Source: an uncultured virus (IMG/VR IMGVR_UViG_3300030606_000005) (lineage: Duplodnaviria > Heunggongvirae > Uroviricota > Caudoviricetes). From it: a stretch of 64,000 nucleotides of DNA. The DNA lies in the IMG/VR virus record IMGVR_UViG_3300030606_000005; one strand, written 5' to 3'. Each line of letters begins with the position of its first letter. Within the stretch, counting starts at the first letter, position 1. Positions 24,874-61,672 of this stretch are shown here, one piece after another. The translations under genes were made by a program, and so were the position numbers. The notes below the pieces were generated by a model that had not been told where the DNA came from, did no database searches, and saw only the letters and a list, made by a program, of their open reading frames with translations.

Positions 24874-25416
24874 TCAACGCAGGTCGAGGACCATGGCGTC
24901 GTACCGGGGCGAGTCCTCGAACGGCTGCATCTGACCGACCTTCCGGTAACCCCAGCTCTCGTAGAGAGCACGCACTTTGGGGTGTTCGCTGTCCACGAGC
25001 AGTGATGCACGGGCTTCCTGCCGCTGGCCCATGAGTTCGTCGTGGATGCCTCGGGCGATGCCCTTTCCGCGCCATGGCTGGCGGACCATGATTTCGCACA
25101 GGCCGAACGTGCCCTGCTCGCCGTAGTCCCGGACGCCGGGGCCGACAGGGTCTAGGATGTCGCGCCACTCCCGGGCGCTGTCGAGCCGCCCGTACGCGTA
25201 GCCGACCGGCTGGCCGTCGATCTCGCCTGCGACACATGCCCAGCTGGAGCCAGAAGCGTGGCCCGAGAGCCGTTCCTCGAAGCGCTCCACGGAGAAGAAC
25301 GGGTCTTGTGCGGCCTCCCGCGCGTACACCTCGGCGTACACGTCCACGAGCATGGAGCGGATCTGAGGCAGGTGTTCGCGCCGGTAATAGCTGAGCGTGA
25401 GCACATCTACCGTCAT
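24874..25416 (-). CDS. GNAT family N-acetyltransferase
   Basis: VGYAYG, EIMVRQPWRGKGIA acetyl-CoA motif, LYESWGY. Confidence 0.9.
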   Translation of the reverse strand: MTVDVLTLSYYRREHLPQIRSMLVDVYAEVYAREAAQDPFFSVERFEERLSGHASGSSWACVAGEIDGQPVGYAYGRLDSAREWRDILDPVGPGVRDYGEQGTFGLCEIMVRQPWRGKGIARGIHDELMGQRQEARASLLVDSEHPKVRALYESWGYRKVGQMQPFEDSPRYDAMVLDLR

Positions 25417-26690
25417 GTTGCCGCCTCCTGGTAGTGGTCTGCGAAGGTCCTTGCCTCTCGCGGAGCGCAGTCCAGCACATCGTCGTGGAACTGCGCCAGG
25501 TGCGCACTCCAGCGAGCGCTGCGTACCTCGGGAAGCAGGCCGAGGGCCTCGTGCCCGGATTCGAGGGCCCCGTCCGCCTCACCAGCCGCGAGAAGGTTCC
25601 TGGCCAGGCTGACATGGGTGGCGAATGCATTCCGGCGGAACTCGTCCGTCGCTATGAGCGCAAGCGCATCACGGTCGGCTTGAGCCGCCCGCGCGTAGTC
25701 CCCCAGGTTGAAGAAGCACAAGGCGGCCTGTCCGGCCATCTCATCGGGGCCGCAGAACGCCAGCCACGCGGGGGCCTGGCCGGACGCACGGTCGAGTTCC
25801 TGTTCGGCGCGGTGGAGGGACTGCGCGCACCGCCCCCTTTCCCCGTCGGCCGAATGCCCGAGTGCGACCCGCGAGTGCAGCAGCGCCGATAGGCGAGGGT
25901 CGCGCCGGCCTCGGGTGGCGTCCAGTGCCGCGCGAGCGACGGCGACCGCCTCGGCGCCGTGGCCGAGGTCGACCGCCTGCCGGGACAGGCTTGCCCAGAT
26001 GCGGGCCTGGAGCATGGGGTCACGTGCGAGGAGTGCGTAGCGAAGTGCGGTGTCCCACCGGCTGCGCGCCTGGTCGTGTCGGCCGGAGTCGTAGGCCAGC
26101 CATCCGGCTTCCTCGCATATTTCACCGAGGGCTTGGTGCAGCTGTGTCTGCACGCGTCCGCCGTAGGTGCAGTGCCGCATGGCGTGCTCGACGTGTTCGA
26201 CGTACCGTCCGGCGATGTCGGCTAGCTGTGCGCTTCCGTGCTGACTGTCCAGCTGGACGAGGTGCGCCTCGGCCTCGCGGATACGGACGATGTCGCTCAG
26301 GCCTAGGCGCCCCGACTCGGGCAGTGGGGGCAGGGCGATGAGGCTGCCGAGGCCGACGATGAACTTGCGGCGGAGCACGGGCGGGTCCTGAGGTGGTGCG
26401 GGTACTGACGTTCGCACGGTAACCCGGGGAGTGCGGCTGGCGGGAGGGCAGAAGCCTAACTCGCTGGCAGGGCGGCCGAATACGCTTTCCAGCGGAAGAC
26501 GACTGCGGGTTCTCGGCCAGGCGACCTTGCCCTTCAGCCAGAAGTTGACGAGCTGCACCGAGCAGTTGCCGGGGGCTCCCGTGAGCTGCTCGGCGGCGTC
26601 GTTGACCGCTTCGGCGAGCCCTTCCCGGGTGAACCCGTACTCGGTCATGAGCTGCCGGAGCGTGAGGTTCGGCTGGAGTTGATCGACCAT
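25413..26690 (-). CDS. XRE-HTH plus helical-repeat transcriptional regulator (NsdA-like family)
   Basis: ATG 26690 with GAGGGG RBS; N-terminal HTH, LDSQHGS and AGWLAYDSG motifs; contains TTA codon at 26459-26457. Confidence 0.8.
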   Translation of the reverse strand: MVDQLQPNLTLRQLMTEYGFTREGLAEAVNDAAEQLTGAPGNCSVQLVNFWLKGKVAWPRTRSRLPLESVFGRPASELGFCPPASRTPRVTVRTSVPAPPQDPPVLRRKFIVGLGSLIALPPLPESGRLGLSDIVRIREAEAHLVQLDSQHGSAQLADIAGRYVEHVEHAMRHCTYGGRVQTQLHQALGEICEEAGWLAYDSGRHDQARSRWDTALRYALLARDPMLQARIWASLSRQAVDLGHGAEAVAVARAALDATRGRRDPRLSALLHSRVALGHSADGERGRCAQSLHRAEQELDRASGQAPAWLAFCGPDEMAGQAALCFFNLGDYARAAQADRDALALIATDEFRRNAFATHVSLARNLLAAGEADGALESGHEALGLLPEVRSARWSAHLAQFHDDVLDCAPREARTFADHYQEAAT

Positions 26691-28688: not shown

Positions 28689-30290
28689 ATGGCCGTACTG
28701 ACCACAGCTGAGGCCGTCATGGACGAGGCCGTCACTCGGGCGGCCCGCGAGTATTTGCGGGTATCCAAGGGCAACGGCCGCACCGCGCGCAGCATCCGGG
28801 ACCAGCACCGGGACAACCTTGCCACCGAGGCGGACCATGGTCCCTGGACTTGGGGGGAGCCGTACAAGGACACCGGATCGGCGTCCAAGTTCGCGCGCAA
28901 GATCCGAGACGATTTCGAGCGCATGCTGGCCGACCTCAGGTCCGGCCAGTTCGGTGGCCCGGGTGATGTGCTCGTGCTGTGGGAGATTTCCCGGCTCGCC
29001 CGCGAGACCGGCCGCGGCGTGGAACTCGTGGACGCCTGCGAGAAGGGCAGGTACCTGATCCACGTCACTTCTCACGAGCGCACCTACAACCCGGCCAACT
29101 ACCAGGACCGCCACAGTCTGATCGGCGGCATCAACGACGCGGAGAAGGAAGCCCGACTGCTGTCCGTCCGCACTCTGCGCGGCCTGAACTCCGCGGCCCG
29201 TGAGGGACGCCCGCAGGGGCAGGTTCCGTTCGGTTACCGGAGGGATTACGAGGTGGTGGACGGTCGTCCGCGCCCCGTGGCGCAGTACCCGGACCCGGAG
29301 ACCGCCCCCCTGGTCAAGGAGTTGTACGAACGCGTCGTGGGCGTGAACGGCAAGCTGCCGGAGCCCATGTACGCGATTGCTAAGGACTGGGAGGAGCGCG
29401 GGGTTGTCGGCAAGAACGGGAAGACGTTCACGCCCCAGAACCTCCGCTCGATGCTCCTCCGTCCGTCGAACGCCGGGCTGCGCAAGCACAACGGGGTGCT
29501 GGTGCCGGAGCAGTGGGATGGCTGGACGCCGGTCATCTCCCGTGACCTGTTCGATCGTGTCCAGGTGATCCTGTCCGATCCGTCGCGCCGCAAGTACACC
29601 GGCGAGCACATCCGGCATGTGCTGAGCATGACGCTGAAGTGCGGCGTGTGCGGCAGGGGCATGGTGGTACAGACCCGTAGGAAGCCGGGCGCCAAGGACG
29701 CCGTCGGGTACCAGTGCGGGCCGAGAGGGCACGTGTGGGTACCGAAGGCCCAGACCGACCGCATCCTCATCGGCGATCTCGACCCCGTCGACCCGGACAC
29801 GGGTGAGCTGCTCCCGCCGAAGTTGGGGACGATTCTGGAGTACCTGACCGCGCCCGACCGGTACGCGGGCCTACGGCATCGGCCCGACACGAGTGCGGAG
29901 GAGACGACACTCAGAGCCGAGCTGGCCCGGCTTCACGGTGAGCTGAAGGAGTTGGAGGAGGCGCCGCAGCCGAAGACTGCGCGTGCCCGTATCCGGCGCA
30001 CCAGCGACATCGAGGAACTGGAGACGGACGTCGCCGTCCTGGAGGCGAAACTGGGCACGCTCACCACCCCGGCTCCGCTCGCCGAACTGCTGCCGGACGA
30101 GCCGATCACCGATGTCGTGCGGTGGTGGCGAAGGGCCGGCGTGGAGAAGCAGCGGGCCATCGCCGCGCTGCTTCTCACACCGTCCATGTTGGGTGAAGTG
30201 CGGATCATGCCGTCACCGGTGCCCCGGGGCCATGCCCCGGTGGCGGAGCGGATGGCCGTGTACCGGGAGACGCTACCCGCTGCTGAGTAG
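28689..30290 (+). CDS. int: Large serine recombinase (integrase)
   Basis: YLRVS catalytic Ser, D.GSAS, WEISRLAR, PFGY, CGVCG zinc ribbon, coiled coil; GGAGG before ATG 28689. Confidence 0.93.
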   Translation: MAVLTTAEAVMDEAVTRAAREYLRVSKGNGRTARSIRDQHRDNLATEADHGPWTWGEPYKDTGSASKFARKIRDDFERMLADLRSGQFGGPGDVLVLWEISRLARETGRGVELVDACEKGRYLIHVTSHERTYNPANYQDRHSLIGGINDAEKEARLLSVRTLRGLNSAAREGRPQGQVPFGYRRDYEVVDGRPRPVAQYPDPETAPLVKELYERVVGVNGKLPEPMYAIAKDWEERGVVGKNGKTFTPQNLRSMLLRPSNAGLRKHNGVLVPEQWDGWTPVISRDLFDRVQVILSDPSRRKYTGEHIRHVLSMTLKCGVCGRGMVVQTRRKPGAKDAVGYQCGPRGHVWVPKAQTDRILIGDLDPVDPDTGELLPPKLGTILEYLTAPDRYAGLRHRPDTSAEETTLRAELARLHGELKELEEAPQPKTARARIRRTSDIEELETDVAVLEAKLGTLTTPAPLAELLPDEPITDVVRWWRRAGVEKQRAIAALLLTPSMLGEVRIMPSPVPRGHAPVAERMAVYRETLPAAE

Positions 30291-44897: not shown

Positions 44898-44956
44898 CCC
44901 GCACCCTGCCCGCCCCGCCAGCCCGCATCGCCCGGCTGCCCCGCGATCACGTGGGA

Positions 44957-47228: not shown

Positions 47229-47434
47229 CCGTCCAACTCGCGATCTTCGTGGACTGCCCGTACGGCGGCTGCGAGGAGGGCTACTGCGCCTGCCTCGAAC
47301 AAGACCTCGACGAGGACTTCGACGAACCGGACGACGACCCCGAACTCGAAGACGACGACGAGCCGGAGTACTTCCGCGCCGTCGAGACCGTCCCGATCTC
47401 CATCGACGACTACGAACCACCCAAGGAACCCTGA
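47225..47434 (+). CDS. Small acidic Cys protein
   Basis: GTGA overlap; D/E-rich. Confidence 0.5.
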   Translation: MTVQLAIFVDCPYGGCEEGYCACLEQDLDEDFDEPDDDPELEDDDEPEYFRAVETVPISIDDYEPPKEP

Positions 47435-47679
47435 TGCCCACGACCACCCTCATCGCCCTCGCGATCGGCCTGGCCGCCGTCGCCAGCCTCTGCCTGAACG
47501 TCCGCGACTGCTGGTTCTTCGGCCTGCTGGCTCTGGCCACGATGGTCGGCGCCGTCGGTGAGGCCTACCGCGAGAACGAACACCTCGCCGTGGGACTGGT
47601 CTCCCTCAGCTTCGTGCTCGGCGTGTTCTCCGCCAGGGCCGCCTGGCGCGACGGCAGCACCGGCCGGGGTTCGCGATGA
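47434..47679 (+). CDS. Small membrane protein
   Basis: Three hydrophobic segments. Confidence 0.6.
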   Translation: MPTTTLIALAIGLAAVASLCLNVRDCWFFGLLALATMVGAVGEAYRENEHLAVGLVSLSFVLGVFSARAAWRDGSTGRGSR

Positions 47680-47894
47680 CGTACGACGTCTTCCTCATCG
47701 GCTTCCTCGGAGGCCTCGCCGCCCTCGTCGGCCTGATCTGTTTCGTCGCCCTCAGCGTCGCCGTCTGCGCGGTTGCCGCCCGCGCCGTCACCGCCATCGA
47801 GGCGGCCAAGGAACTGCGCCGTGCCCGCCGCCAGGACCTGACGACCTGCCGTGCCATCGAAGCGCTCGGCATCACCAACCACCCCAAGGAGTAA
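47676..47894 (+). CDS. Small membrane protein
   Basis: N-terminal TM. Confidence 0.6.
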   Translation: MTYDVFLIGFLGGLAALVGLICFVALSVAVCAVAARAVTAIEAAKELRRARRQDLTTCRAIEALGITNHPKE

Positions 47895-47896
47895 CC

Positions 47897-48064
47897 ATGT
47901 CCGACCAGCTCGCCCGCACCGGAACCGCCGCCGGAGCCATCGTCATCGGCACCACCGTCATCACCGGGTGGTGGCTTCTCGCCGCCGCCTTCACCCTCGT
48001 CGCCATCGGCGCCGTCTGCATCCGCGCCGGCTTCCGCCGAGGCCGTGGGGCAGGCCAGCGGTGA
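47897..48064 (+). CDS. 55-aa membrane peptide with LARTG motif
   Basis: AAGGAG RBS; LARTG, hydrophobic stretch, Arg-rich tail. Confidence 0.65.
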   Translation: MSDQLARTGTAAGAIVIGTTVITGWWLLAAAFTLVAIGAVCIRAGFRRGRGAGQR

Positions 48065-49575
48065 CCAGACACCTGACCGCGCACCCGCACCGCTCCGGCA
48101 TGGTCCTCACCGGCGCCATCGCCCTCACCCTCGCCGCCGGATGGGCAGCCCACCACGGCATCCAGGCCGCCCGATACGGCACCGACACCGGCAGCCGCCT
48201 CGCCGCCGTGTGGTCCGTGACGTTCCTGCTGCTCCTCACCCAGACACTCATGTACCACCTGGAGCGCACCCGTCGGCCTTCCCCACGGGCACGCCGCCAG
48301 CTCGACGCACTGCACGTCGCGGTGCTCATACCGGTCTACAACGAGGACCCCGGATATCTGCGGCTCGGCCTTCAGTCGATGCTCGCCCAGACCCGGCGCC
48401 CGGACTCGGTGCACGTCGTCGATGACGGGTCGACGAGCGGCGACTATGCCGCGGTGCGCGCCTGGTGGATCCGGGCGGCGGCCACGGCCGGGATCGCGAC
48501 GACGTGGCAGCGCACCGCGAACGCGGGCAAGCGGCACGCGCAGGCCGCAGCGGTCCGGGTCAGCCCGGACGCGGACGTCTACATCACGGTCGACTCCGAC
48601 TCCTGCCTCGATCCGAACGCGCTGGAAGAGATCCTGCTGCCGCTCGCCCGCGCCCGGGTGCAGTCCGTCGCAGGGATAGTCCTCGCGACGAACCACCGGA
48701 CCAACCTCCTCACCCGGATCACGGACCTGTGGTTCGTCACCGGGCAGCTCACCGACCGCTCCGCCCTCTCCGCGATGGGCAGCGTGCTGGTCAACTCCGG
48801 CCCGCTCGCCGCCTACCGGGCCCCGGTCGTACGCGACAACCTCGACAGCTATCTGAACGAGCGGTTCATGGGCAGGCCCGTGATGTTCTCCGACGACAGC
48901 CTGCTGACCCTGTACGCGCTGCTGCGCGGCCGGACCGTGCAGCAACCGTCCGCCGTGGTGTTCACCGCGCTGCCCGAGAAGACGTCCCACTTCCTGCGCA
49001 TGTACCTGCGCTGGATGCGCGGCTCCACCATCCGCTCCCTGTGGCGCATGCGCTACCTGCCCGTCACAGGGTGGGCGTACTGGGCTCACCTGCTCCGCTG
49101 GTTCCAAGTCGCCCTGTCCACCGCCGTGCTGGGCTGGCTGCTGGTCGTCGAGCCCGCCGTGTACGGGCGCACTCCGCCCGCGAGCTTCTTGATCGTGCCG
49201 TTCCTGATCGGCTGGGCGCAGGCCCTCCGCTACCTCGGCATCATCCGCAGCGACGAACGCATCCGCGCCCGGCTCGTCACCTGGCTGCTCATGCCGCTCG
49301 CCGTCGTCGGCTCATGGACCGTGCTCCGGGCGATGCGCTGGTACGGCATGGCGACCTGCGCCCGCACCGGCTGGGGCACCCGCCAGAACGGCGCCGAAGT
49401 CGCCCTGGACGCCCGGACGCCCGAGGACACGGCCGTGCCTCTGCCGGACGACGACACCGTCCGCATGCGCATCCCCGTCGCGAAGCTGCTCGACCCGGAC
49501 ACCGAGACCACCCTCACCCTGCCCATCCCACACCAGCGCACCGCCGCGCCTCAGCACGAAGGAAGCACCCGATGA
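48061..49575 (+). CDS. Processive GT2 glycosyltransferase (HasA/NodC-like)
   Basis: IPVYNED, DDGS, GKRHAQ, DSD, SDD, YLRW; N- and C-terminal TMs. Confidence 0.88.
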   Translation: MTRHLTAHPHRSGMVLTGAIALTLAAGWAAHHGIQAARYGTDTGSRLAAVWSVTFLLLLTQTLMYHLERTRRPSPRARRQLDALHVAVLIPVYNEDPGYLRLGLQSMLAQTRRPDSVHVVDDGSTSGDYAAVRAWWIRAAATAGIATTWQRTANAGKRHAQAAAVRVSPDADVYITVDSDSCLDPNALEEILLPLARARVQSVAGIVLATNHRTNLLTRITDLWFVTGQLTDRSALSAMGSVLVNSGPLAAYRAPVVRDNLDSYLNERFMGRPVMFSDDSLLTLYALLRGRTVQQPSAVVFTALPEKTSHFLRMYLRWMRGSTIRSLWRMRYLPVTGWAYWAHLLRWFQVALSTAVLGWLLVVEPAVYGRTPPASFLIVPFLIGWAQALRYLGIIRSDERIRARLVTWLLMPLAVVGSWTVLRAMRWYGMATCARTGWGTRQNGAEVALDARTPEDTAVPLPDDDTVRMRIPVAKLLDPDTETTLTLPIPHQRTAAPQHEGSTR

Positions 49576-50213
49576 TCCGCAACACTGAGAAGGACGCCAA
49601 TGATCCGGCCGGGGCGATGCTCATCCTGGCTGCGAGCATGGGTTCCGGCGGCACCGACCAGGTCATCGCCGAGCAGGAGCGCGCCGGGCAGGCGCAGCTC
49701 ATCAACTCCGACCGGCTGCCCGCAGACCTGAGCGGCGACGACCAAGCCGCCTTCGAGGCGCTCGGCTTCACCTTCGGCGAGCCCGACCCGGGCGACCCGC
49801 TGTTCCGCCCGGCCACGCTCCCCGAGGGATGGAAGCGCGAGGGGTCTGACCACGACATGTGGTCGTACGTCGTCGACCAGCTCGGCCGCCGCCGCGTCGC
49901 CGTCTTCTACAAGGCTGCCTTCTACGACCGGCGCGCGTTCATGCGGCTCAACACGCTGCATGGCTACGTCTCCGAGTGTGGCTACCACGACAGCCCGATC
50001 GTCACCGACGAGACATGGGCGACCCCGGCCGGCCTCGCCCAGGCCCTCCGCGACCTCGCCGCCGAGGCGCAGAAGAACGTCACCAGCTGGGAGCAGATCG
50101 CCGAGCGGGGCGGCGCGGACGACGACACCAGGAAGTACGTCGCCGAGTACACCGCCACCCGCGACAAGTACACCGCGCTCGCTGAGGGTTTCGAAGCGGT
50201 GGCCGAGGCATGA
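49572..50213 (+). CDS. Hypothetical protein
   Basis: DPLFRPATLPEGW, VFYKAAFYDRRA. Confidence 0.65.
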   Translation: MIRNTEKDANDPAGAMLILAASMGSGGTDQVIAEQERAGQAQLINSDRLPADLSGDDQAAFEALGFTFGEPDPGDPLFRPATLPEGWKREGSDHDMWSYVVDQLGRRRVAVFYKAAFYDRRAFMRLNTLHGYVSECGYHDSPIVTDETWATPAGLAQALRDLAAEAQKNVTSWEQIAERGGADDDTRKYVAEYTATRDKYTALAEGFEAVAEA

Positions 50214-51898
50214 GCGACAGCGCACACCCGGCCCTGGCCACGTTCCGGCTCTACCGCGAGCACGATGTCACCGGCATCTCCGGTGAGGGTGTCATCGCCG
50301 AGGGAGTCCAGTTCTCCGACGGCTGGGTCGTCACCCACTGGCTCGACCAGCCGCCGATGTGGGAGCCGAAGACCGATGTGTGGCACCACAAAGGCACCCA
50401 CCCCATCGCGAAGATCCACGGCCATGACGGGGCCACCCGCATCGTGTGGACCGATGAGTTCGTGTGTCCGGCCCAACTGCCGCCCGCACTCGTGGGCATC
50501 GTCCCCGGCGGCCCGTGCGTCGCGCGCGGGCCGCACACCGAGCACAAGACGGCTGATGGAACCGCCTTCACGGACATCGAGGACGCGACGGCGCCCGCGA
50601 AGACGTGCAGCGCGCAGTACACCGGGGTACTTCCGGTGGGCGAGTGCATCCGCGCCGCCGGGCACAGTCCTGCCACCGACCACACCGACGACCGTGGGCG
50701 CAACTTCGGGGGCAGGCTGTCCGAGTACCCCGCCACTGGCTCCCAGGCACCGCCGAATCAGGGCCCGTTGACGGGTATCGAGGTGCGCGACCCGTGCCCA
50801 TGGTGCGAGGACTGCCCGCTCATCCCGCTCACGCTCATGGACGACCACATACGCGAGCACCACCCCGAGGTACGTGAGGGCGGGCCCGGCATCCCGGTGC
50901 CCGACGCGGAGCCGGAGCCGGTTCGCTTCGTCCAGGTCGATGGTGTCCTCGCCGATGGTGGCGCCGACGCCGCCCGTGAAGCCCTGCGGCAGATGGACGC
51001 CGACCCGCACGGTCTCAAGGCGGGCATGGTCGTCAAGCCGTACACGGAGTACGGCCAGCAGAAGTGGGTGTTCCGCTGCTGGGGCACCGACACCTGCGAT
51101 GGGTTCCTCTCTCTCGACCACTACAGCCAGCTGTCAGCCGAGCGGGCGCGAGACCGGCACGCCGCAGAGGAGCACCCGGAGGCCACGGTCACTGTGCGGC
51201 TGGACAACTCGGCCGCCAAGTTCACCCCGCGTCCGGACGGTGGCATAGCGGAGGACGGCCTACGGCGGCGGTGCGAGCAACTGCATGCCCAGCTGGACGA
51301 CGCCGAGGCGGGCATCACGGAGGCCGTACGGCAGCGGAAAGCTGCGGAGGACCGCGCGCGCCGAGCCGAGGGCGAACGATCCGAGGCTGCCCAGCTCAGC
51401 CATCAGTACCGCAACGCCGCCGAGCGGGCCAAGCGGGATCACGACCAGCAGGCCACCGCCCTCGCCGACGCACAGCAGCTCATCAGCATGCTGGGGGACC
51501 TCATCGGCGCTGAGCGTCGCATTGTGATGACTGCCATGGGCCACCGCGAGGACCAGGGTGTACGCCGCGAGGCATGCGACGGCTGCGGGCGGGACCACAT
51601 GGCCGAGCTGGAAACGGTGATCGCGACGGCCGACAAGGCGTACGCCGTGGCGTTCCCACCCACCGCCGACGGGCCCGCGCGCCCCGGACGCCTGCCCGAC
51701 GGCGCCCGGCTCACCCCGCGTCAGCGCGCCTACGAGGCCACCAACGCCTACATCGAGAGTCTCGGCGACCGCCTGCCGTCGACCAGGTCAGCCCGCACCG
51801 CGCACATCTGGCAGGCCGTGAACACCGCCCTCGAAGCCGCCGGACACGCCGCCAACCCCGAGACCCTCTGCCGACTCCCGCACGAGATGGAGGTGTGA
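50210..51898 (+). CDS. Mosaic multi-domain hypothetical protein
   Basis: N-terminal DVTGISGEGVIAEGVQFSDG; several Cys/His motifs and a coiled coil. Confidence 0.6.
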   Translation: MSDSAHPALATFRLYREHDVTGISGEGVIAEGVQFSDGWVVTHWLDQPPMWEPKTDVWHHKGTHPIAKIHGHDGATRIVWTDEFVCPAQLPPALVGIVPGGPCVARGPHTEHKTADGTAFTDIEDATAPAKTCSAQYTGVLPVGECIRAAGHSPATDHTDDRGRNFGGRLSEYPATGSQAPPNQGPLTGIEVRDPCPWCEDCPLIPLTLMDDHIREHHPEVREGGPGIPVPDAEPEPVRFVQVDGVLADGGADAAREALRQMDADPHGLKAGMVVKPYTEYGQQKWVFRCWGTDTCDGFLSLDHYSQLSAERARDRHAAEEHPEATVTVRLDNSAAKFTPRPDGGIAEDGLRRRCEQLHAQLDDAEAGITEAVRQRKAAEDRARRAEGERSEAAQLSHQYRNAAERAKRDHDQQATALADAQQLISMLGDLIGAERRIVMTAMGHREDQGVRREACDGCGRDHMAELETVIATADKAYAVAFPPTADGPARPGRLPDGARLTPRQRAYEATNAYIESLGDRLPSTRSARTAHIWQAVNTALEAAGHAANPETLCRLPHEMEV

Positions 51899-51901
51899 GC
51901 C

Positions 51902-52057
51902 GTGATCTGCAAGCCATGCCGAGACGCCGCCGCTGGTGTGCCCGGCGCCCGCCACTGCGACGAGCCCGCCAACCCCGGCCGTGAGTCCTGGTCGTGCGCC
52001 TGCCAGCACCGGCCGCCCGTACGTCAGGCCGACGCCGACACCTCGAAGGAGTCCTGA
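51902..52057 (+). CDS. Small Cys-rich protein
   Basis: GGAGG RBS; ICKPC...CACQH. Confidence 0.5.
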   Translation: MICKPCRDAAAGVPGARHCDEPANPGRESWSCACQHRPPVRQADADTSKES

Positions 52058-52059
52058 CC

Positions 52060-52629
52060 GTGGCGAACACTCAGTGGAACGGCGAACCCTGTGCGGCGCG
52101 GCGCATCACCGCCATCGTCGCCGACAACGACGCCTTCCCCGGGTACTGGGCCCGTCACCTGGTCGGCACGCGCCGCGACGTCGTCGAAGTGACCTACGGC
52201 GGCAGCACCTTCTACCTCGACGACGAGGTGGGCGAAGGCTGGCACAAGGTCACTCACGGCGGATCACCGCGCTGGGCGCACAGCAACATCACCATCCAGC
52301 CGGACAGCATCCAGCCCCGTGGCGACCGCAAGGCCGACCCGGACATGCCCTGCCCGCACGAGAACTTCGACGCCTTCGTGGAAGTCAACCGGGTCACCGC
52401 GAGCGACAACGACCCGACGGCGGTCGGTTACCACGCCGACGCCAAGGTCAGCTGCTACGACTGCGGCGAGCCGTTCCGCTGGACCGGCGTGAAGGCCGGC
52501 ATGTCCCAGGGCCGTCCGATGTGCAGCGTCGACGAGACCGAGCTGCGCGCGCCCCTGCGCCCGGCGAGCGCGGACCCCGACTTCGGACTCGGACTGCCCG
52601 GCTTCTCCGTCCGGTACAGGGAGGGCTGA
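52060..52629 (+). CDS. Hypothetical protein (two domains)
   Basis: AAGGAG RBS; CPHENF, CYDCGEPF. Confidence 0.6.
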   Translation: MANTQWNGEPCAARRITAIVADNDAFPGYWARHLVGTRRDVVEVTYGGSTFYLDDEVGEGWHKVTHGGSPRWAHSNITIQPDSIQPRGDRKADPDMPCPHENFDAFVEVNRVTASDNDPTAVGYHADAKVSCYDCGEPFRWTGVKAGMSQGRPMCSVDETELRAPLRPASADPDFGLGLPGFSVRYREG

Positions 52630-53810
52630 TGGACCGCGTCAACCCGGTGGACGACCGCACGTTCACCACGCCCCTCATCAAGGGACTCCAGCGGCGGATC
52701 GACCTGCTCGCCGAGACGATCCCCGGCGACGACGCCTACCGGATCGCCGCAGCCTGGGTGTACACGACACTGCTGGTCGCGTGGTGCGAGGACCACGGCC
52801 TCATCGAGACCCGGCTGCGAGCCGGCGCACAGGACCGGCGCAAGGCGCACCTCGATGCGGGCGGGAGGATGCTCGGCTGGCTGGGCTGGTCGGCCGCCGC
52901 ACTCACCGTGCACCCCTCCACCGCGTGCCTGCTGGACCCCCGCTACAACCCGATCACGAAGGGCGCCCCCACCGAGCAGGCCGCCCGCGCGCTCGTCGAC
53001 TGGTGGACCGACGAAGCCCCCGACCTCGCCTACCCCACGGGCAAGGGGCCCGCGTCCATCACCGGCTGGCTGGCCGGAGACATGCTCCAACTCGTCACCG
53101 ACGAACGCCGCCTCGCCAACGCCCTGTGCCAGACCCCCTGGTGGATCGCCGACTTCCTCCTCGACCGCACCCTCGCCCCCGCCATCGGCGCCTTCCCCGG
53201 CCAGCTGCTGCGGGTCATCGACCCCGCCTGCGGCACCGGACACCTCCTCGTCTGGGCACTCATAGGCCTCTACCACTGGTACCGCAGCGACCGCCCCGGG
53301 CACCCCGCGATGGATCCCCGCCGGGCCATCAGGCGGGCATTGGCGGGACTGCACGGCGTGGAACTCGACCCGCTCACCGCCGCCGTCGCACGCCTGCGCC
53401 TCACCGTCACCGCCGGCGCCCTCCTCGCAGCAGACGGCGCACTCCCCACCCCGCTGCGCCTGCACCAGATCCCCGCCGGCCTGCGGCCCCGGGTCGCCAT
53501 CGGCAACGCGCTCCTCGCCGGACTCGACGACCCGTGCCCGCCCGGCACGATCCTCGACGACACCGCCGACTACCCCGGAATCCTCACCCGCGGCACCTAC
53601 CACGCCGTCGTCGCCAACCCCCCGTACATCACGGTCAAGGACCCGGCCGTGAGCAAGGCGATCAAGGCCGCCTACTTCGCGGCCCACGGCAAGTACAGCC
53701 TGTCGGTGCCCTTCGCCCAGCTCACCTTCGACCTCGCTATCCGTGGCGCCCCGGACGGAGAACCCCTCGCACCGCCAGAACAGCTCGGCCTGTTCGCCAC
53801 CCCGGCATGA
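52629..53810 (+). CDS. N6-adenine methyltransferase, truncated PglX (BREX-2)-like
   Basis: IDPACGTGHLL then ANPPYITVKD (gamma order); 393 aa. Confidence 0.85.
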   Translation: MDRVNPVDDRTFTTPLIKGLQRRIDLLAETIPGDDAYRIAAAWVYTTLLVAWCEDHGLIETRLRAGAQDRRKAHLDAGGRMLGWLGWSAAALTVHPSTACLLDPRYNPITKGAPTEQAARALVDWWTDEAPDLAYPTGKGPASITGWLAGDMLQLVTDERRLANALCQTPWWIADFLLDRTLAPAIGAFPGQLLRVIDPACGTGHLLVWALIGLYHWYRSDRPGHPAMDPRRAIRRALAGLHGVELDPLTAAVARLRLTVTAGALLAADGALPTPLRLHQIPAGLRPRVAIGNALLAGLDDPCPPGTILDDTADYPGILTRGTYHAVVANPPYITVKDPAVSKAIKAAYFAAHGKYSLSVPFAQLTFDLAIRGAPDGEPLAPPEQLGLFATPA

Positions 53811-53816
53811 CCGCCT

Positions 53817-53891
53817 GCCCGGGTGGCGGAACAGGCAGACGCAGCCGCCTTAAAAGCGGATCAGTTGCGGGTTCGAATCCCGTCCCGGGCA
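53817..53891 (+). tRNA. tRNA-Leu(UAA)-like, short variable loop
   Basis: GCCCGGG/CCCGGGC acceptor, Leu-type D-loop, CT-TAA-AA loop (TAA 53851-53853), GGTTCGAATCC, discriminator A. Confidence 0.82.
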
Positions 53892-53925
53892 CGTCAACCA
53901 GCCACGCACCAAGGAGTTCCAGCAC

Positions 53926-54189
53926 ATGCGCCGTATCAAGGCCGCGTCCGTCGAGCAGCTGCTTACCGGCAACGGTCACAAGCTCAGCGAGTTCTGGGAC
54001 GGCGACTGGGACCCCGGGTTCCGCGTCGCGCAGGGCGGCACCCGCGTCGTGTTCGTTTTCTACGACGGTCACGACGAGGCCGACCAGCTCGACGCCGTTA
54101 CGGCCGAGCTGCGCGGTGCTGGGTACCACGTGGTCGCCACGCATCAGGAAGGCGCCGGGCACCGGCGCCTGGAGGTGACCCGCCCATGA
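53926..54189 (+). CDS. Hypothetical protein
   Basis: AAGGAG RBS. Confidence 0.6.
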   Translation: MRRIKAASVEQLLTGNGHKLSEFWDGDWDPGFRVAQGGTRVVFVFYDGHDEADQLDAVTAELRGAGYHVVATHQEGAGHRRLEVTRP

Positions 54190-54407
54190 TCGCCGTTCGC
54201 CGCATCCTCAACCGGGCCATCGCGCACGCGGTGCTGCTCGGCCGCCACCACCGCACGGCCGTCGTCGGCGGCTACCACTGGCGCTACTGCTCCCACCGTT
54301 CCCATTGGCTCCGGCTGCCGTGCTGGCGCTGGTTCATCCACGACGGCTACTGCCACCACCACAACGAGACCTGCTGGCTCAACTGCCCGGAGCGCCCTCT
54401 TGACTAA
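54186..54407 (+). CDS. His/Cys/Trp-rich small protein
   Basis: ATGA overlap. Confidence 0.5.
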   Translation: MIAVRRILNRAIAHAVLLGRHHRTAVVGGYHWRYCSHRSHWLRLPCWRWFIHDGYCHHHNETCWLNCPERPLD

Positions 54408-54738
54408 GCCCACCCCGATCGACGAGCTACGTACGGCTGCCGCCCGCCTGCGCGACGACCGGAACTGCGACGGCCACCGCGTCGACTGCAACAGCCGCGA
54501 ACTGCTGGAGATGATCCGCGTCCTGCTGCGCGCCCGCGAACCGCTCGCCGAGTTCCTGGAGACCGAGGCCGGCGTCGCCGAGGACATTCAGCGGCAGAGC
54601 CCGGACCTCACCGCCGATCAGGTCGCCGCGTTCGTTCACGGCGCGCTCGGCACCGCCCGTGCCATCAACGCCGCCGCCGAGCCCGGCCCTGTGCGCGGCG
54701 GCGCCATCCTCGACCACCTCACCGGAGGAACGACCTGA
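54400..54738 (+). CDS. Hypothetical protein
   Basis: TPIDELRTAAARLR. Confidence 0.6.
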   Translation: MTKPTPIDELRTAAARLRDDRNCDGHRVDCNSRELLEMIRVLLRAREPLAEFLETEAGVAEDIQRQSPDLTADQVAAFVHGALGTARAINAAAEPGPVRGGAILDHLTGGTT

Positions 54739-55118
54739 TGCAGCCCGCCTTCACCCGCGGCTTCCGCCTGCACCACAACGGCCAGGTCCTCGACGGTGCC
54801 GAGTTTCCCTCCGGCCGCGCATTCGTGATCGACGACCCCGAGCACGGGCTCGCGTCCGCTGCGACGTCGGTGCAGCACCTCCTGGAGGGCTACCACGGCG
54901 CCCGCGTCGAATGGCCCGGCGACCAGCTCGTACCCACGGCGCTGCTGCTCGACCTGGTGAACATCGTCGCCAACGCCCGGCGGGACCGGCCCTTCCCCGA
55001 GGCCACGGCGCGCGCAGTCCTCGGCCAGCTCACGAAGTACCTGGGCTACGACGTCGCCGAACGCGCCGCCGAGCAGGAAGCCACCCGCGCCCTCGCACGA
55101 GGGGACACGCACCTGTGA
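54738..55118 (+). CDS. Hypothetical protein
   Basis: GGAGG RBS; DGAEFPSG. Confidence 0.6.
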   Translation: MQPAFTRGFRLHHNGQVLDGAEFPSGRAFVIDDPEHGLASAATSVQHLLEGYHGARVEWPGDQLVPTALLLDLVNIVANARRDRPFPEATARAVLGQLTKYLGYDVAERAAEQEATRALARGDTHL

Positions 55119-55534
55119 GGCCGGAGCTGCGCCGTCCTGGCGCCCGCTGGCGGCTGCTCGTGCACGAGTGGGCCGGACGCGTCTCCGGCCAGCGCGACGG
55201 CATGTACGGCGCCGCGCACAGCATCGCCAGCGACACCGCGTTCGGCGGCAAGGTCCCCGACGGCGAGCACTACAAGAACCACCTGTTCGAGAACACCGAG
55301 TTCGACGAACTGACGGTCGGCAGGTGGCTACACATCGAGCAGATGGACCACCGCGTGTGGTGGATGAACATCGCCGGGATCACCGTGCACGCCACCGTCG
55401 ACCGCGACGGCCGCCCGCTGCGCGTGTGGGTGTCCGGCCCCTACGACTACGACGAACCCGTGCCTGACTGCCGCTACGAGCTGACCTGGACCAACCCCGA
55501 GCAATACCCGAAGGAGCAAGCCGATGGACGCTGA
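55115..55534 (+). CDS. Hypothetical protein
   Basis: FDELTVGRWLHIEQMD. Confidence 0.6.
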   Translation: MRPELRRPGARWRLLVHEWAGRVSGQRDGMYGAAHSIASDTAFGGKVPDGEHYKNHLFENTEFDELTVGRWLHIEQMDHRVWWMNIAGITVHATVDRDGRPLRVWVSGPYDYDEPVPDCRYELTWTNPEQYPKEQADGR

Positions 55535-55778
55535 ACACCGCGTCGTCACGATCGACCGCCACGAGTGGGTACTGAAGAGCCCCGCCCACCACACCGAGAT
55601 CGGCAAGGCCGTCGACGCCGCCGAACTGGAACGCGCCACGCAGGCCTCCAAGGGCGTGCGTACCGGCGACGTCCACGTCCACGGCGACGACACCGAGTTG
55701 GTCATCTCATTCGAGGCCGAGCGGAAGAACTCCAAGCGGACGATCCGCGACCAGATCATCGAGGCCGACGATGCCTGA
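55524..55778 (+). CDS. Hypothetical protein
   Basis: AAGGAG RBS. Confidence 0.6.
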   Translation: MDAEHRVVTIDRHEWVLKSPAHHTEIGKAVDAAELERATQASKGVRTGDVHVHGDDTELVISFEAERKNSKRTIRDQIIEADDA

Positions 55779-56145
55779 GAAGCGCATCAGGACCGACACC
55801 ATCCGAGGACAATGCCCCGCGTGCGGGTGGGCGTCGCTCTTCGTCGGCGAGGGCGGCTACCTCACGTGCTCGCGGCTGGAATGCCCGCAGCCCGACACCG
55901 CGCACAGAATCCTCGCCGACCGCGAGACCGAGCACATCGTGCAGTTCGACGACGACGGCTTCACCGTCCGCCACCCGCTGCGCGAGCGCCTCGACGACGC
56001 GCTGATGCGATGCGACCTGCACCGGCACTGCGCCTCCCTGCCCGGCCCTCCGGATGCGCCCGGTCGGTACCGGACTGTCGAGCAAGACGGCGGCTGGCTG
56101 TTCCAACGGCTCGACGTGCAGGAGGCCGCCAGTGCAGACGATTGA
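55771..56145 (+). CDS. Zinc-binding hypothetical protein (DUF6085-like)
   Basis: GQCPACG..LFVGEGGYLTCS..CPQP. Confidence 0.6.
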   Translation: MPEKRIRTDTIRGQCPACGWASLFVGEGGYLTCSRLECPQPDTAHRILADRETEHIVQFDDDGFTVRHPLRERLDDALMRCDLHRHCASLPGPPDAPGRYRTVEQDGGWLFQRLDVQEAASADD

Positions 56146-56698
56146 CGACCTCGTCCGGGACCTGCTCGATTGTTGGACCGGCGACGAGCAGCATCCCGGC
56201 GACGGCGGCCCCGGCCTCATCACCAGACTCGACAGCCTCGCCCTGCGTACCCGGCAGCCGCCCGCCGGCGGGCACGCCCCGCCCGGCAGCCGCCCGCCCG
56301 CCTCGCTGGACGCCGTGCACTGGTCGACGGCGATCAAGGCTCAGGCGCGCATCCTCGACATGGAGCTGCGCGGCTCCAGCCACATGCAGCAGTGGGACCG
56401 CGCCCTCCGCGCGATCCCGCCAGGCGCCGAGGCCGCGGGCCGCGTCGCTGAGGTCGCATCCACCGTCGGCCGCTGGCACTCCAGCTGCCGCACCGCGCTC
56501 GGACTCCAGGAGCCGGCCCGGCACTACCGGCACGTGCTCTGTCTGGTGTGCGGCCAGCGCACCGTGTACGGCCGCGCCGACGGCGACCGCCCGCGCGCCT
56601 GGTGCATCAACGACGTCTGCACCGACGAGGACACCGGGCAGCCCGCCCGGTACGAGGGCGACCGCCTGTACCTGCTCACGGAGAACCGGGCCTCATGA
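56132..56698 (+). CDS. Hypothetical protein with C-terminal zinc ribbon
   Basis: PGSRPPASLDAV, CLVCG, CINDVC. Confidence 0.6.
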   Translation: MQTIDDLVRDLLDCWTGDEQHPGDGGPGLITRLDSLALRTRQPPAGGHAPPGSRPPASLDAVHWSTAIKAQARILDMELRGSSHMQQWDRALRAIPPGAEAAGRVAEVASTVGRWHSSCRTALGLQEPARHYRHVLCLVCGQRTVYGRADGDRPRAWCINDVCTDEDTGQPARYEGDRLYLLTENRAS

Positions 56699-57438
56699 CC
56701 GCAGACACGCCCGTCGCCCACGGCTACACCGTGCGCGACCTCGAACACTTCGCCCGGCTCGTCCTGCGCATGGACCGCTGGTACATCGCTGGAGACATTG
56801 ATGAGCGGTACGACGCCGTGTGGTTCGGCATCACCGAGTGCCTGCTCACCGCCGATGAGCCGCCGACCCGGCGGGAGCTGCTGAACGCGGGCACCGCGGC
56901 CTCCGACGCCCGGGTCAGGGACGACATGCGCACGCACGGCCGGTGCACGCAGAACTTCGGCCAGCCGATGCCCCGCTTCCACGCCTACTGGAATCCGGCC
57001 AACCCTCCGTCGCCGGAACACCGTGTCGTCGAGCGTCTCGCCGTACAGCAGATCTGGCCGCTGCTCCAGCCCCGCCAGCGGCAGGCTCTCGCAGCGCTCG
57101 CCACCACCGGCGACTACGACAAGGCCGCCGCCGCGCTCGGCATCACCAAGGGGACCTTCGGCGTGCTCATCTCCACTGGCCGCCGCCGCTTCTACGCCTG
57201 GTGGCACGAGCACGAAATGCCCTCGCGTCAGTGGCGCACAGACCGGCGGGTTCGTTCCAGGGACGGCCGCGACCACCTCGGACGACAGCGGCTCACCGCA
57301 GCGCAGGTCGACGCCTACCGGCAGCGCCGCGACGCCGGCGAACCCGTGAAGGCTCTGGCCGCTGAAGCAGGAATAGCGACCGGCACCATGTACCAGCTAC
57401 TCAAGGGCGCGTCCAAGCCTGCGCAGGTGATGACGTGA
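56695..57438 (+). CDS. Sigma-factor-like/HTH DNA-binding protein
   Basis: LQPRQRQAL..YDKAAAALGI and a second C-terminal HTH. Confidence 0.6.
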   Translation: MTADTPVAHGYTVRDLEHFARLVLRMDRWYIAGDIDERYDAVWFGITECLLTADEPPTRRELLNAGTAASDARVRDDMRTHGRCTQNFGQPMPRFHAYWNPANPPSPEHRVVERLAVQQIWPLLQPRQRQALAALATTGDYDKAAAALGITKGTFGVLISTGRRRFYAWWHEHEMPSRQWRTDRRVRSRDGRDHLGRQRLTAAQVDAYRQRRDAGEPVKALAAEAGIATGTMYQLLKGASKPAQVMT

Positions 57439-58679
57439 GCAGCAGCACTCTGGAGGCACTCGCCGCCGAAGCCCCGGGCCCCGACGGGCACCGGCAGATC
57501 ATGCGCGTGGCCGTCAACGCCGTCGCCGCCGCGCGTGGCATGCCTGCGCCGTGGCCCATGGACATTCCCGGTGATACGGCCGAGCGCGTTGTGAAGCTGC
57601 TGGCCGACCTCGCAGACCTCAGCCAGTGGGGTGCTGCGGAACTCGGCGAGCTGCGCGAGCAACTGCTCGCGACCGAGGACCGCAGCGCGTCGGGCGTCTG
57701 GTACACGCCAGCCGAGGTCGCCCGGCCACTGACCCACGCCGCCCTGGGCGAGATCACCGACCTGCACCTGGACGACGACCCCGTCGACGTCCTCAACGTC
57801 TCGGTCCTGGACCCGGCGTGCGGCTGCGGAGTGTTCCTCATCGCCGCCGCACGCATCCTCGCCTCCGCCTACGTCGGCCTGCTGTACGGCACGCAGGATC
57901 CCGCCCCGCTCACTGTTCAGGCCGTCATGGCCGACGTCATGCGCTGCTGCGTGTACGGCATCGACACCGACCCGGTCGCCGTCGACCTCGCCAAGGCCAT
58001 GTGCTGGCTGGAGACCAGCGGCTTCGCCCCCATCGACTGGCTCGACGACAACATCGTCGTCGGCAACGCCCTCGCAGGGGACATCCCTCCGGCGCTGACC
58101 GGCCGGCTCAGCACGGCCAGCCCGCTGGCGATCGTGGGCAACCCGCCCTACAAAGACAAAGCCAAGGGCGCCGCCCCATGGATCGAAGCCCGCCGTCCCC
58201 ACCGGCTGAAGGACCGTTCCCCCGACGAACTCTGGCGCCCGTCCTTGGACGAGTTCCGCACCCCCGGCCAGGGCCGGTTCGAGTACACGCTGTCCAACCT
58301 GTACGTGTACTTCTGGCGCTGGGCCCTGTGGCGCGTCTTCGAAACCCGCATGAACGCCGGGGTGATCGCGTTCCTCACCCCGAGCGCCTGGCTGAAGAGC
58401 GAGGCATTCAATGGGATGCGCGGCGCCATGCGCGGGGCCGCCGACCGGATCCTCATCGTCGACCTGACACCCGAGGGCAAAGCGCCGCCCACCAAGACGC
58501 GCATCTTCCCGGGCGTCACCCTTCCCCTCTGTGCGGCAGTGCTCGCCCGGCGCGGAGGCCCACGACCGGACGACATGGCCCCCGCACACATCGCCACCGT
58601 TTCGGGCAGCCGCGAGGACAAATTCCGGCAGCTCGAACGGCTCCTCGGCGCTTCAAGCCCGACATGGGGCGCCTCGTGA
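57435..58679 (+). CDS. N6-adenine methyltransferase, Type ISP-like catalytic core
   Basis: GVWYTP, VLDPACGCGVFL, GNPPY, NLYVYFWRWA. Confidence 0.85.
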   Translation: MSSSTLEALAAEAPGPDGHRQIMRVAVNAVAAARGMPAPWPMDIPGDTAERVVKLLADLADLSQWGAAELGELREQLLATEDRSASGVWYTPAEVARPLTHAALGEITDLHLDDDPVDVLNVSVLDPACGCGVFLIAAARILASAYVGLLYGTQDPAPLTVQAVMADVMRCCVYGIDTDPVAVDLAKAMCWLETSGFAPIDWLDDNIVVGNALAGDIPPALTGRLSTASPLAIVGNPPYKDKAKGAAPWIEARRPHRLKDRSPDELWRPSLDEFRTPGQGRFEYTLSNLYVYFWRWALWRVFETRMNAGVIAFLTPSAWLKSEAFNGMRGAMRGAADRILIVDLTPEGKAPPTKTRIFPGVTLPLCAAVLARRGGPRPDDMAPAHIATVSGSREDKFRQLERLLGASSPTWGAS

Positions 58680-58684
58680 TGGGG

Positions 58685-59140
58685 TCAGGGCGCGTCGATC
58701 TCGGCTTGAGTACGTGGGTCACCGTTGAGTCGGATCGCGATCGTGCGCGCCGTCTCGTGATTGACGTCCGCCCAGCGGCCGATCTCGCGGAAGGAATGGC
58801 CGGCCCGGCGCGCACCGGCGATGTCCTGTTCGAGTTCCCGCCTTCGCTGGGTGATGACCCTCGCTCGGCGGCGAAGCCGGGGCGTCCAGCGCTCGGCTCC
58901 AGGGGCGACGGCTCCCATCTTGTTGTACCGGGGGTGCTCACGCTGGATCGCGCGGAGTTCCGCCTTGAGCGCGGCCTGCCGCGTGCGGCGCCATGTGATC
59001 TCCTTCGTGGCAACCTCAGGCCACCACGCCTTGTCGGCCTCATGCTGTGCGAACCGGACCGAGGGTCGATCGGTGACGCCGACATACAGAAGGTGCCCGT
59101 CGGCGTCGTACAGCCGGTACAGCGCCGTCCGGCCGCTCAT
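58685..59140 (-). CDS. GIY-YIG nuclease-domain protein with C-terminal HTH
   Basis: LYRLYD....LLYVGVT, RFAQH, E..AI..EHPRYN; GHSFREIGRW. Confidence 0.85.
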   Translation of the reverse strand: MSGRTALYRLYDADGHLLYVGVTDRPSVRFAQHEADKAWWPEVATKEITWRRTRQAALKAELRAIQREHPRYNKMGAVAPGAERWTPRLRRRARVITQRRRELEQDIAGARRAGHSFREIGRWADVNHETARTIAIRLNGDPRTQAEIDAP

Positions 59141-59370
59141 TTGTCGGCCTCTTCCCGCTCCCGCGTTTCTCGCGCGCGCCGTGCTTCCAGCACCACCTTT
59201 CGGGCCGGCCGTGAGGGCAGCTCGGCACCGGGCTCACGCAGGTACCAGGCGATCAGCTCGCGGATCACGGCGGCGCGCTCAGTGCCAACGCTCTTGGCCG
59301 CGGCGTCGAAGTCGTACCACTCGTCACCGATGCGGATCTGGCGAGCTGGAGTCTTCGGCGCATTCGGCAT
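59137..59370 (-). CDS. Ribbon-helix-helix DNA-binding protein
   Basis: TPARQIRIGDEWYDFDAAAK...RAAVIRELIAWY. Confidence 0.75.
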   Translation of the reverse strand: MPNAPKTPARQIRIGDEWYDFDAAAKSVGTERAAVIRELIAWYLREPGAELPSRPARKVVLEARRARETREREEADK

Positions 59371-59386
59371 GAGCGCACCGTACCGG

Positions 59387-59492
59387 GGTGTAGCTACGGG
59401 CTTCAATGTCCTCACCTCCGGGTGTAGCTACAGAAATCATGGTCCACCGCCTTGCGGTGTAGCTACACCTCACGCTATGGTGTAGCTACACC
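59387..59492. promoter_or_regulatory. Four copies of palindromic operator GGTGTAGCTACACC over a rightward promoter
   Basis: Copies at 59387, 59421, 59456, 59479 (last two perfect); TTGCGG-18-TATGGT overlaps them. Confidence 0.85.
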
Positions 59493-59510
59493 CAAAGTCA
59501 AGGAGGGGTC

Positions 59511-59870
59511 ATGGACGCACAGCTCACGCGCAGGATCACCGTCGCCGAGTACCTCGTACGGCGCGACCTCCCGGCCGACTGGCGCTTCGGCTCTTGGCTG
59601 GGTCGTGTCGCCGCTGAGATCTACCGCGACACCTACCGGCGCGAGCCGTCCAAGGCGTTCCGGTTCATCAACGGCCGCTTCCGCAGGGTGATGGCGTACC
59701 GGCCGTCCGAGGCGCACGTGCTGATCGCCGCGTGGGAGCGGTACGGCCGGTTCGCCGAGGACCGGCCCGCCCCGGCCGTCCGTACCCGCCACGTCCCGGC
59801 GCCCCGCTTGACCAGCATCGACGCGATGCGGTGGACCCCGAGCCGTGGCCCTGTCCGTAGCCACCCGTAA
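59511..59870 (+). CDS. Hypothetical Arg-rich protein
   Basis: AAGGAGG RBS. Confidence 0.7.
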   Translation: MDAQLTRRITVAEYLVRRDLPADWRFGSWLGRVAAEIYRDTYRREPSKAFRFINGRFRRVMAYRPSEAHVLIAAWERYGRFAEDRPAPAVRTRHVPAPRLTSIDAMRWTPSRGPVRSHP

Positions 59871-59895
59871 CCGTCCGCCCCGGAAAGGGGGAGTC

Positions 59896-60141
59896 ATGTC
59901 CGACACCCTGATTCGCGCTCTCGACCTGATCGAGCCCGGTGACCTGGTCGTCTACCACGGCTCCATCCGCAGCATGCACGGCCTGTGGCTGGCGATCCCG
60001 TGCCCGTGCCGGATCTGCCAGGCCGTGGACGCGCTCGGTCTGGTCGACGTCCGGTTCGCGTTGGCCGACCCGTGGGGCGAGCGGCCCGGCCCCCACCACG
60101 TCCGCCGCCAGTCCATCACCCGCTCTATCGCCTGCGGCTGA
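59896..60141 (+). CDS. Hypothetical protein with CxCxxC
   Basis: GGGGGAG RBS. Confidence 0.6.
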   Translation: MSDTLIRALDLIEPGDLVVYHGSIRSMHGLWLAIPCPCRICQAVDALGLVDVRFALADPWGERPGPHHVRRQSITRSIACG

Positions 60142-60149
60142 GCACCCCA

Positions 60150-60225
60150 GGGCCTGTAGCTCAGGAGGCAGAGCGAGGGATTTAAACCCCAGTGCGCGCC
60201 GGTTCGACCCCGGCCGGGCCCACCA
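60150..60225 (+). tRNA. tRNA-like gene with degenerate anticodon arm (TAA or TTA), encoded CCA
   Basis: 76 nt; intact acceptor, D and T arms; anticodon arm AGGGATTTAAACCCCAG poorly paired. Confidence 0.7.
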
Positions 60226-60260
60226 GATCAGTCACCGATCAACCCCGGAGGGGGAACACC

Positions 60261-61466: not shown

Positions 61467-61561
61467 ACCCCCAGACCGGCGGCCGGGCCGACTCCCCCAG
61501 CTCGGCCGCCCCCAGGGCCGCCGCCCCGCCCAACCCCCGTCACGCGGGGCGGCGGCTCCAA

Positions 61562-61637
61562 GCGCCCGTGGCCCAACCGGTAGAGGCAGCGCCTTATAAG
61601 CGTCGAGCTGCGAGTTCGAATCTCGTCGGGCGTACCA
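61562..61637 (+). tRNA. tRNA with TAT anticodon (Ile, reads AUA), encoded CCA
   Basis: GCGCCCG/CGGGCGT acceptor, CT-TAT-AA loop (61595-61597), 4-bp anticodon stem, GTTCGAATC, ACCA. Confidence 0.8.
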
Positions 61638-61672
61638 CCGCAGATCACCAACGACTCAGGAAGACACGCGAC

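Follow-up and report, generated by a model that had tools for sequence, protein, structure and literature searches.

A conserved, short-armed tRNA-Leu(UAA) on a temperate phage, probably a spare decoder of UUA codons

The window, by which is meant the whole 64,000-nt stretch of DNA analysed, holds most of a phage of 70% GC, with portal, capsid and tail genes, a serine integrase, a repressor-like HTH protein, RecT, RusA, WhiB, several methylases and a DUF932 protein. The presence of the large serine integrase indicates that the phage is temperate. The features considered here are as follows.

25413..26690, minus strand: NsdA-family TPR-like regulator (NF053720, 296.7 bits against a cut-off of 75)
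28689..30290, plus strand: large serine integrase (PF00239, PF07508), 23 kb from tRNA-Leu(UAA)
52629..53810, plus strand: adenine methyltransferase resembling the N-terminal third of BREX-2 PglX (NF033451)
53817..53891, plus strand: tRNA-Leu(UAA), type I, the variable loop being short (ARAGORN, Infernal, alignment)
53844..53860, plus strand: its anticodon arm, four Watson-Crick pairs under a G27·A43 mismatch (53844/53860)
53851..53853, plus strand: its anticodon UAA, in the loop CUUAAAA with A37-A38
53861..53866, plus strand: its variable loop UCAGUU, 6 nt, last base U48
53926..54189, plus strand: 87-aa ORF of unassigned function in the same operon, beginning 34 nt after tRNA-Leu(UAA)
60150..60222, plus strand: second tRNA, class I body, degenerate anticodon stem, CCA encoded (ARAGORN, Infernal)
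61562..61634, plus strand: third tRNA, anticodon UAU (Ile, reads AUA), CCA encoded (ARAGORN, Infernal)

ARAGORN called a tRNA-Leu(taa) at 53817-53892, and Infernal matched 53817-53891 to the full RF00005 model with 55 bits (E 4.2e-9), exceeding the gathering score of 29. As a chance control, 20 simulated 64-kb windows gave two ARAGORN calls of any kind. The tRNA was parsed as GCCCGGG UG GCGG AACAGGCAG ACGC A GCCGC CUUAAAA GCGGA UCAGUU GCGGG UUCGAAU CCCGU CCCGGGC A. Its D arm, GCGGAACAGGCAGACGC, is of the Leu type (G13·A22, A14, A15, G18G19, A20a), the 15:48 tertiary pair is A15:U48, and A73 at 53891 is followed by C-G-U, so that C74 is encoded and CCA is not. The Leu-type D-loop, discriminator A and anticodon TAA that the preliminary description had pointed out are all present on parsing, and the variable region of just 6 nt (TCAGTT) and the G-A mismatch atop the anticodon stem that it reported correspond to the UCAGUU loop and to G27·A43. 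The gene is covered, with 0 differences, by a contig from a different study's run, which rules out assembly errors as the source of the short loop and of the mismatch. The minimum free energy fold alone is not a cloverleaf (z -2.4); it is the covariance model and the covariation that support one. G3:U70 is the identity mark of alanine tRNAs, and it was ruled out here, the bases being C3-G70.

Pattern scans and BLAST retrieved 14 further close UAA copies from high-GC phage records and Streptomyces plasmids. Ten UAA copies of this family were compared with the window's tRNA and were 81-95% identical to it, the closest relatives 85-95%. A covariation alignment of 12 rows (10 UAA and two phage CAA tRNAs) was analysed, in which 96.7% of the cells pair and two-sided changes are found at 9 of the 20 pairs. 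None of the 500 shuffles and no slid control equalled this covariation; since the rows are related, this is not to be read as a probability. The variable loop has 5-8 nt in 14 of the 15 UAA copies and 14 nt in the other, 15:48 is A:U in 14 and G:C in one, and 27:43 is unpaired in ten copies (G·A in seven) and paired again in five. The short arm and the mismatch are thus stable traits of a selected tRNA, the G·A being a trait of the family and not a lesion, while the single 14-nt copy shows the arm to be variable in length among family members. Of 14 family copies, 13 encode C74, and the tRNA starts 6-11 nt past an upstream stop codon in 9 of 14. It is confirmed that 53817-53891 is a real, conserved tRNA gene; judged from the alignment, the cloverleaf of the UAA family is under selection, and the window's tRNA is probably functional.

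The possibility was considered that the gene is a relic, either an uncharged or decaying tRNA or a processing mark at which a polycistronic message is cut. The absence of an encoded CCA, the one mismatch, the near lack of cognate codons, the tight fit between ORFs and the degenerate look of the second tRNA would agree with this. However, throughout the family the stems vary by compensatory changes and the UAA anticodon, A37-A38 and the Leu-type D arm stay the same; a mere processing mark would have no need of an invariant anticodon. A relic of either kind is highly improbable.

The family member with the 14-nt arm (L164:6004-6085) lies on the S. platensis plasmid NZ_CP108975.1 and has 70 of 74 aligned bases the same as the window's gene, so that the two form a natural pair with which the role of the arm could be tested. 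Three UAA tRNAs are carried by one other Streptomyces plasmid, NZ_CP134606.1 (L174, L175, L176), one of which is long-armed, bldA-like and without G19. Similar sequences match 13 Streptomyces plasmid records, S. anulatus plasmids included (L247), and on the one of these that was fetched the UAA tRNA adjoins a ScbR-family gene.

BLAST against 50,697 cultured phage records gave 14 weak matches, none with 80% coverage. A scan of a genome collection with an exact pattern, which family members with C13 would escape, returned 41 loci with no Streptomyces-titled record among them. These short-armed Leu(UAA) loci represent 34 distinct sequences (cyanobacterial arrays, Myxococcota and others), some of them attachment-site chimeras. 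Short-armed Leu(UAA) genes were also found in viral contigs, and one is annotated in Mycobacterium phage Kykar. A 5-nt-armed Leu(UAA) tRNA was seen on the chromosome of Nonomuraea gerenzanensis (L167:1985-2058).

The host of the phage is taken to be a Streptomyces because the best plasmid matches of tRNA-Leu(UAA) are four Streptomyces records and 76 of the 78 records matching the NsdA-family regulator, a cargo gene, are from Streptomyces. The preliminary description took bacterial tRNA-Leu to be class II with a long variable arm, and for this genus that premise fails. In the accessible text of Fan et al. 2019 (PMC6614811), a tRNA-Leu(CAA) of type I, its loop 5 nt long, is shown to be native to S. 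coelicolor and to be charged by the leucyl-tRNA synthetase of that species (ScoLeuRS) at less than half the efficiency of bldA tRNA. The short arm is therefore not new, short-armed tRNA-Leu being already in print for Streptomyces. ScoLeuRS is described there as needing U8-A14, C74 and a loop that includes nucleotide 48 and measures 5 nt or more, with A73 unimportant, and bldA given a short loop retains 14% charging. The same text cites, at second hand, a type I Leu(CAA) with a UAA anticodon as replacing bldA. Against charging speaks that one Streptomyces LeuRS, from S. purpurogeneiscleroticus, was unable to take a type I tRNA.

Each feature needed by ScoLeuRS, as established on tRNAs that had neither a 6-nt loop nor G27·A43 (PMC6614811), is found in the window's tRNA, which has a 6-nt loop ending in U48, U8-A14 and an encoded C74. 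In the parts of that paper available, it is for the similar host tRNA that charging of the short form is documented. A pattern taken from the same paper retrieved six host-type Leu(CAA) genes, all of which end in A73-C74-U with no CCA, and the missing CCA in the window's tRNA is accordingly normal. From its sequence, the window's tRNA very probably accepts leucine and reads UUA, in which case it could read UUA without bldA.

That part of the preliminary description is retained, namely a phage-encoded tRNA that very probably takes leucine and reads UUA; its proposal of a minimised bldA mimic is not. The window's tRNA shares 74% identity with a bldA-like copy on a plasmid, used as a proxy for chromosomal bldA, against 85-95% with its closest relatives, which form a separate mobile-element family. 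It also keeps G19, and the GCCCGG acceptor stem that it shares with bldA is commonplace in bacterial Leu(UAA) genes with a long arm. When viral contigs were scanned for chromosomal bldA, none of the 56 loci found was recognisable as Streptomyces bldA; they are mostly generic long-armed Leu(UAA) genes or attachment remnants. Trees of 69 columns, from which the second and third window tRNAs and their slot-mates were left out, gave p-AU values of 0.119 (with host-type CAA), 0.094 (with bldA-like) and 0.193 (short-armed only); they are compatible with more than one origin and direction of arm change, and a joint clade with the bldA-like copy is not rejected. By its identity and its G19 the window's tRNA is not recognisably bldA, which it appears to resemble in codon reading. 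The suggestion that it might act out of schedule has a catch as well. Transcription of bldA is early, and the timing of its function is said to lie with a late modification of A37 by MiaA/MiaB (available text of PMC10732093; A37 modification as the timer also in that of PMC12772374). With the same A36-A37, the window's tRNA would still need the host's MiaA/MiaB.

The tRNA-Leu(UAA) gene lies inside a long rightward gene run that begins after the repressor, probably the lytic operon; its assignment as a lytic-operon RNA follows from this gene order. A strict scan for consensus sigma-70 promoters found none in 44400-64000. Confined to sigma-70, the scan missed a TTGCGG-18-TATGGT site at about 59450 that was spotted by eye, and the tRNA may for this reason be expressed in the lysogen too. 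The site is surrounded by a repeated GTGTAGCTAC motif at 59384-59492, between divergent HTH-like/GIY-YIG genes and the operon of the second and third tRNAs, and this stretch is likely an operator-controlled promoter. Just upstream of the serine integrase, an inverted repeat at 28614-28646, CTAAGG(T)GCAT / ATGC(G)CCTTAG around CCATGG, is a candidate attP or operator.

A phage that integrates into bldA and replaces the broken host gene with its own tRNA would be a case of tRNA-dependent lysogeny, which is known in actinophages, tRNA-Leu(CAA) included, from the accessible text of PMC10865867. Tyrosine integrases are present in 8 of 15 related records. The integrase of this phage, however, is of the serine type, with the tRNA 23 kb away in the rightward operon. 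In an indirect comparison, only chance-level 10-11-mers are shared between the integrase region and the bldA-like proxy tRNA, none of them at the anticodon loop, and the tRNA family also occurs on plasmids. We give this explanation hardly any credence.

The stop codon of the PglX-like methylase is 6 nt ahead of tRNA-Leu(UAA). The methylase product matches NF033451 with E 1.2e-63, below the full-length cut-off; it is a stand-alone homologue of the PglX N-terminal third, with a possible anti-Pgl function. The arrangement bears on a role in counter-defence, in which the tRNA would replace or resist the loss of host tRNAs destroyed by nucleases or toxins, or serve as a decoy, with the odd anticodon stem as an escape feature. 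Such roles have been proposed for actinophage tRNAs (PMC10264068, from the portion available). A UAA tRNA is found directly behind the PglX-like methylase in four of the five records encoding that methylase, the other two tRNAs of the window flank DUF932 in a methylase-rich region, and 27:43 is unpaired in all three. But bldA is dispensable for growth and the phage barely uses UUA, so destroying bldA would be a poor defence, and the 27:43 pair is restored in 5 of 15 family copies. A counter-defence role is quite unlikely.

The anticodon of the second tRNA is UAA in the standard register (Infernal) and UUA, an ochre reader, in a shifted register (ARAGORN). Ochre read-through was rejected because the three TAA-ended ORFs are out of frame with the next called ORF. 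The slot of this gene, before DUF932, is occupied by UAA tRNAs in the related phages G003 and G004. Together with L057:9878-9954 and L248:2001-2076, the gene represents a second kind of UAA tRNA, near DUF932 and with a class I (GCUC/GAGC) body. The copies of this kind in G004 and on a plasmid of Streptomyces sp. NBC_00989 have G3:U70 and A73 and, on these bases, might put alanine at UUA; the copy at 60150-60222 has G3-C70.

The body of the third tRNA, with A15:U48 and a GCCC/AGGC D arm, is 75-83% like that of most Leu(UAA) family members, and isoleucine is its putative amino acid; as an Ile(UAU) it would read AUA without the lysidine route. UAU tRNAs with a different body flank the DUF932 gene in G002, G003 and G004, and UAA and UAU tRNAs occur together in G003, in G004 and on a Streptomyces plasmid. 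In the accessible part of PMC4932002, the inventory of six Streptomyces genomes lists for each one UAA tRNA gene and no UAU. By that inventory, the tRNA set of the window matches the two A/U-only codons for which host supply is limited or indirect.

Codons were counted with a simple gene caller of our own (100 genes, 19,681 codons), which missed at least one ORF, near 30290-31200, that has no TTA; the reading frame of each of the 64 TTA triplets, on either strand, was checked. TTA occurs once and is the rarest sense codon, and ATA, with 11 occurrences, is joint-second-rarest. The sole in-frame TTA of the window is Leu78 of the NsdA-family regulator, at 26457-26459. This gene is phage cargo, located upstream of a GNAT gene and near the integrase, with a divergent DUF6415 gene; PADLOC assigned no defence family to the NsdA-like or the GNAT gene. 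Eleven homologues with 30-40% identity were fetched, ten picked from 78 plasmid matches and one viral. TTA stands in the Leu78 column in 3 of the 11 and a fourth has two TTA nearby, against a background of 3 TTA among 483 other Leu codons (binomial about 2e-5, with relatedness ignored). The codon pattern suggests that the TTA at Leu78 is a real bldA gate and part of a bldA-gated module on mobile elements.

This codon brings up the possibility that the tRNA overrides bldA, so that TTA-gated regulators (the phage's own NsdA-family gene, host adpA, antibiotic activators) are translated outside their schedule and host development is reprogrammed. The only TTA of the phage lies in a member of a family whose namesake, according to the available text of PMC5748664, represses sporulation and antibiotic production; its TTA column looks like a bldA gate, and UAA tRNAs are present on many Streptomyces plasmids, with three on one. 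Yet the NsdA TTA and the UAA tRNA are not a conserved pair. None of the four elements with a TTA-bearing NsdA homologue (one of them 50% complete) carries a UAA tRNA, and the homologue is absent from all 13 related phage records. Moreover, it is to the lytic operon that the tRNA seems to belong, and the host TTA genes that would be turned on take in SCO6638, a gene listed alongside the Pgl anti-phage island, with no obvious gain for the phage. An override of bldA is, in our estimate, unlikely.

The 11 related records with a UAA tRNA, several of them partial, have 0-2 TTA each and four have none. Given these counts and the failure of NsdA and tRNA to co-occur, the tRNA is not kept for one particular phage gene, and since the demand for TTA is tiny, simple codon compensation is a weak reason for keeping it. 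In the related phages G012 (L153:1734-4691) and G013 (L149), which also carry the UAA tRNA, TTA codons are found in a long tape-measure-like gene, a lytic structural gene.

The explanation that we favour, with a probability of roughly 0.6, is that the gene encodes a functional short-armed tRNA-Leu serving as a spare UUA decoder in lytic growth, independent of bldA. The gene, its structure, conservation and position, and the codon counts were observed; from these we infer the host genus, expression, processing, the charging of the window's sequence and the purpose. The tRNA would be co-transcribed with the rightward, probably lytic, operon, excised by host enzymes and given its CCA by them, and leucine would be attached by a Streptomyces LeuRS able to accept type I tRNAs. 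UUA could then be decoded during phage growth without the host's single, developmentally timed bldA tRNA. With Ile(UAU), it would make up a spare set for the two A/U-only codons that the host reads worst, UUA and AUA. Such a set would prevent stalling wherever one of these infrequent codons turns up in a phage or host message, and would not be a switch run by the lysogen. UUA stalls have been linked to ppGpp, and phage pressure has been suggested to lie behind the bldA checkpoint, in the part of Hesketh et al. (PMC2000904) that was available.

A broader and rather speculative extension, which we hold to be improbable as a whole, is that widespread bldA-independent UUA decoders on Streptomyces phages and plasmids break the translational clock in lytic growth. 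Here the TTA-gated NsdA-family repressor would be unlocked on induction, damping differentiation and the antibiotic (chemical) defence, although the same codon would tie the cargo to development in the lysogen. A literature search, outside whose reach most subscription journals lay, turned up no publication dealing with UUA tRNAs that phages or plasmids carry in Streptomyces. If the tRNA is charged and expressed, mobile elements can supply the tRNA that gates Streptomyces development and much antibiotic production. The idea that the bldA/UUA checkpoint was born of phage conflict (put forward in the available texts of PMC2000904 and PMC10732093) would become testable, and a compact bldA-independent UUA decoder would be at hand for waking silent gene clusters.

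Four known systems invite comparison. The tRNA-dependent lysogeny of Guerrero-Bustamante and Hatfull 2024 (PMC10865867, as far as its accessible text goes) likewise involves a temperate actinophage with a tRNA of a single-copy host isotype; those systems use a tyrosine integrase, whereas the window has a serine integrase with the tRNA far from it, and bldA is not essential. The short-armed Leu(UAA) tRNAs of other phages, of tRNA arrays and of some chromosomes have the same shape and anticodon, but most of them come from large tRNA clusters or from hosts other than streptomycetes, settings in which UUA is not known to act in development. bldA shares with the window's tRNA the UAA anticodon, A15:U48, the GCCCGG acceptor stem and the codon read. 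It differs in having a 17-nt arm and no G19 (PMC6614811, in the text available), where the window's tRNA has a 6-nt loop and G18G19, and it is a stand-alone chromosomal gene, whereas the window's tRNA is embedded in a phage operon. S. coelicolor tRNA-Leu(CAA) differs in its anticodon, in G15:C48 instead of A15:U48, in lacking G27·A43 and in its D arm; the window's tRNA is phage-borne and 69-72% identical to host-type copies, and an origin from host Leu(CAA) by one anticodon change is unlikely on account of that identity and of G15:C48. The two have in common a short loop (5 and 6 nt), G18G19, U8-A14, A73-C74 without an encoded CCA and, as inferred for the phage, the host genus.
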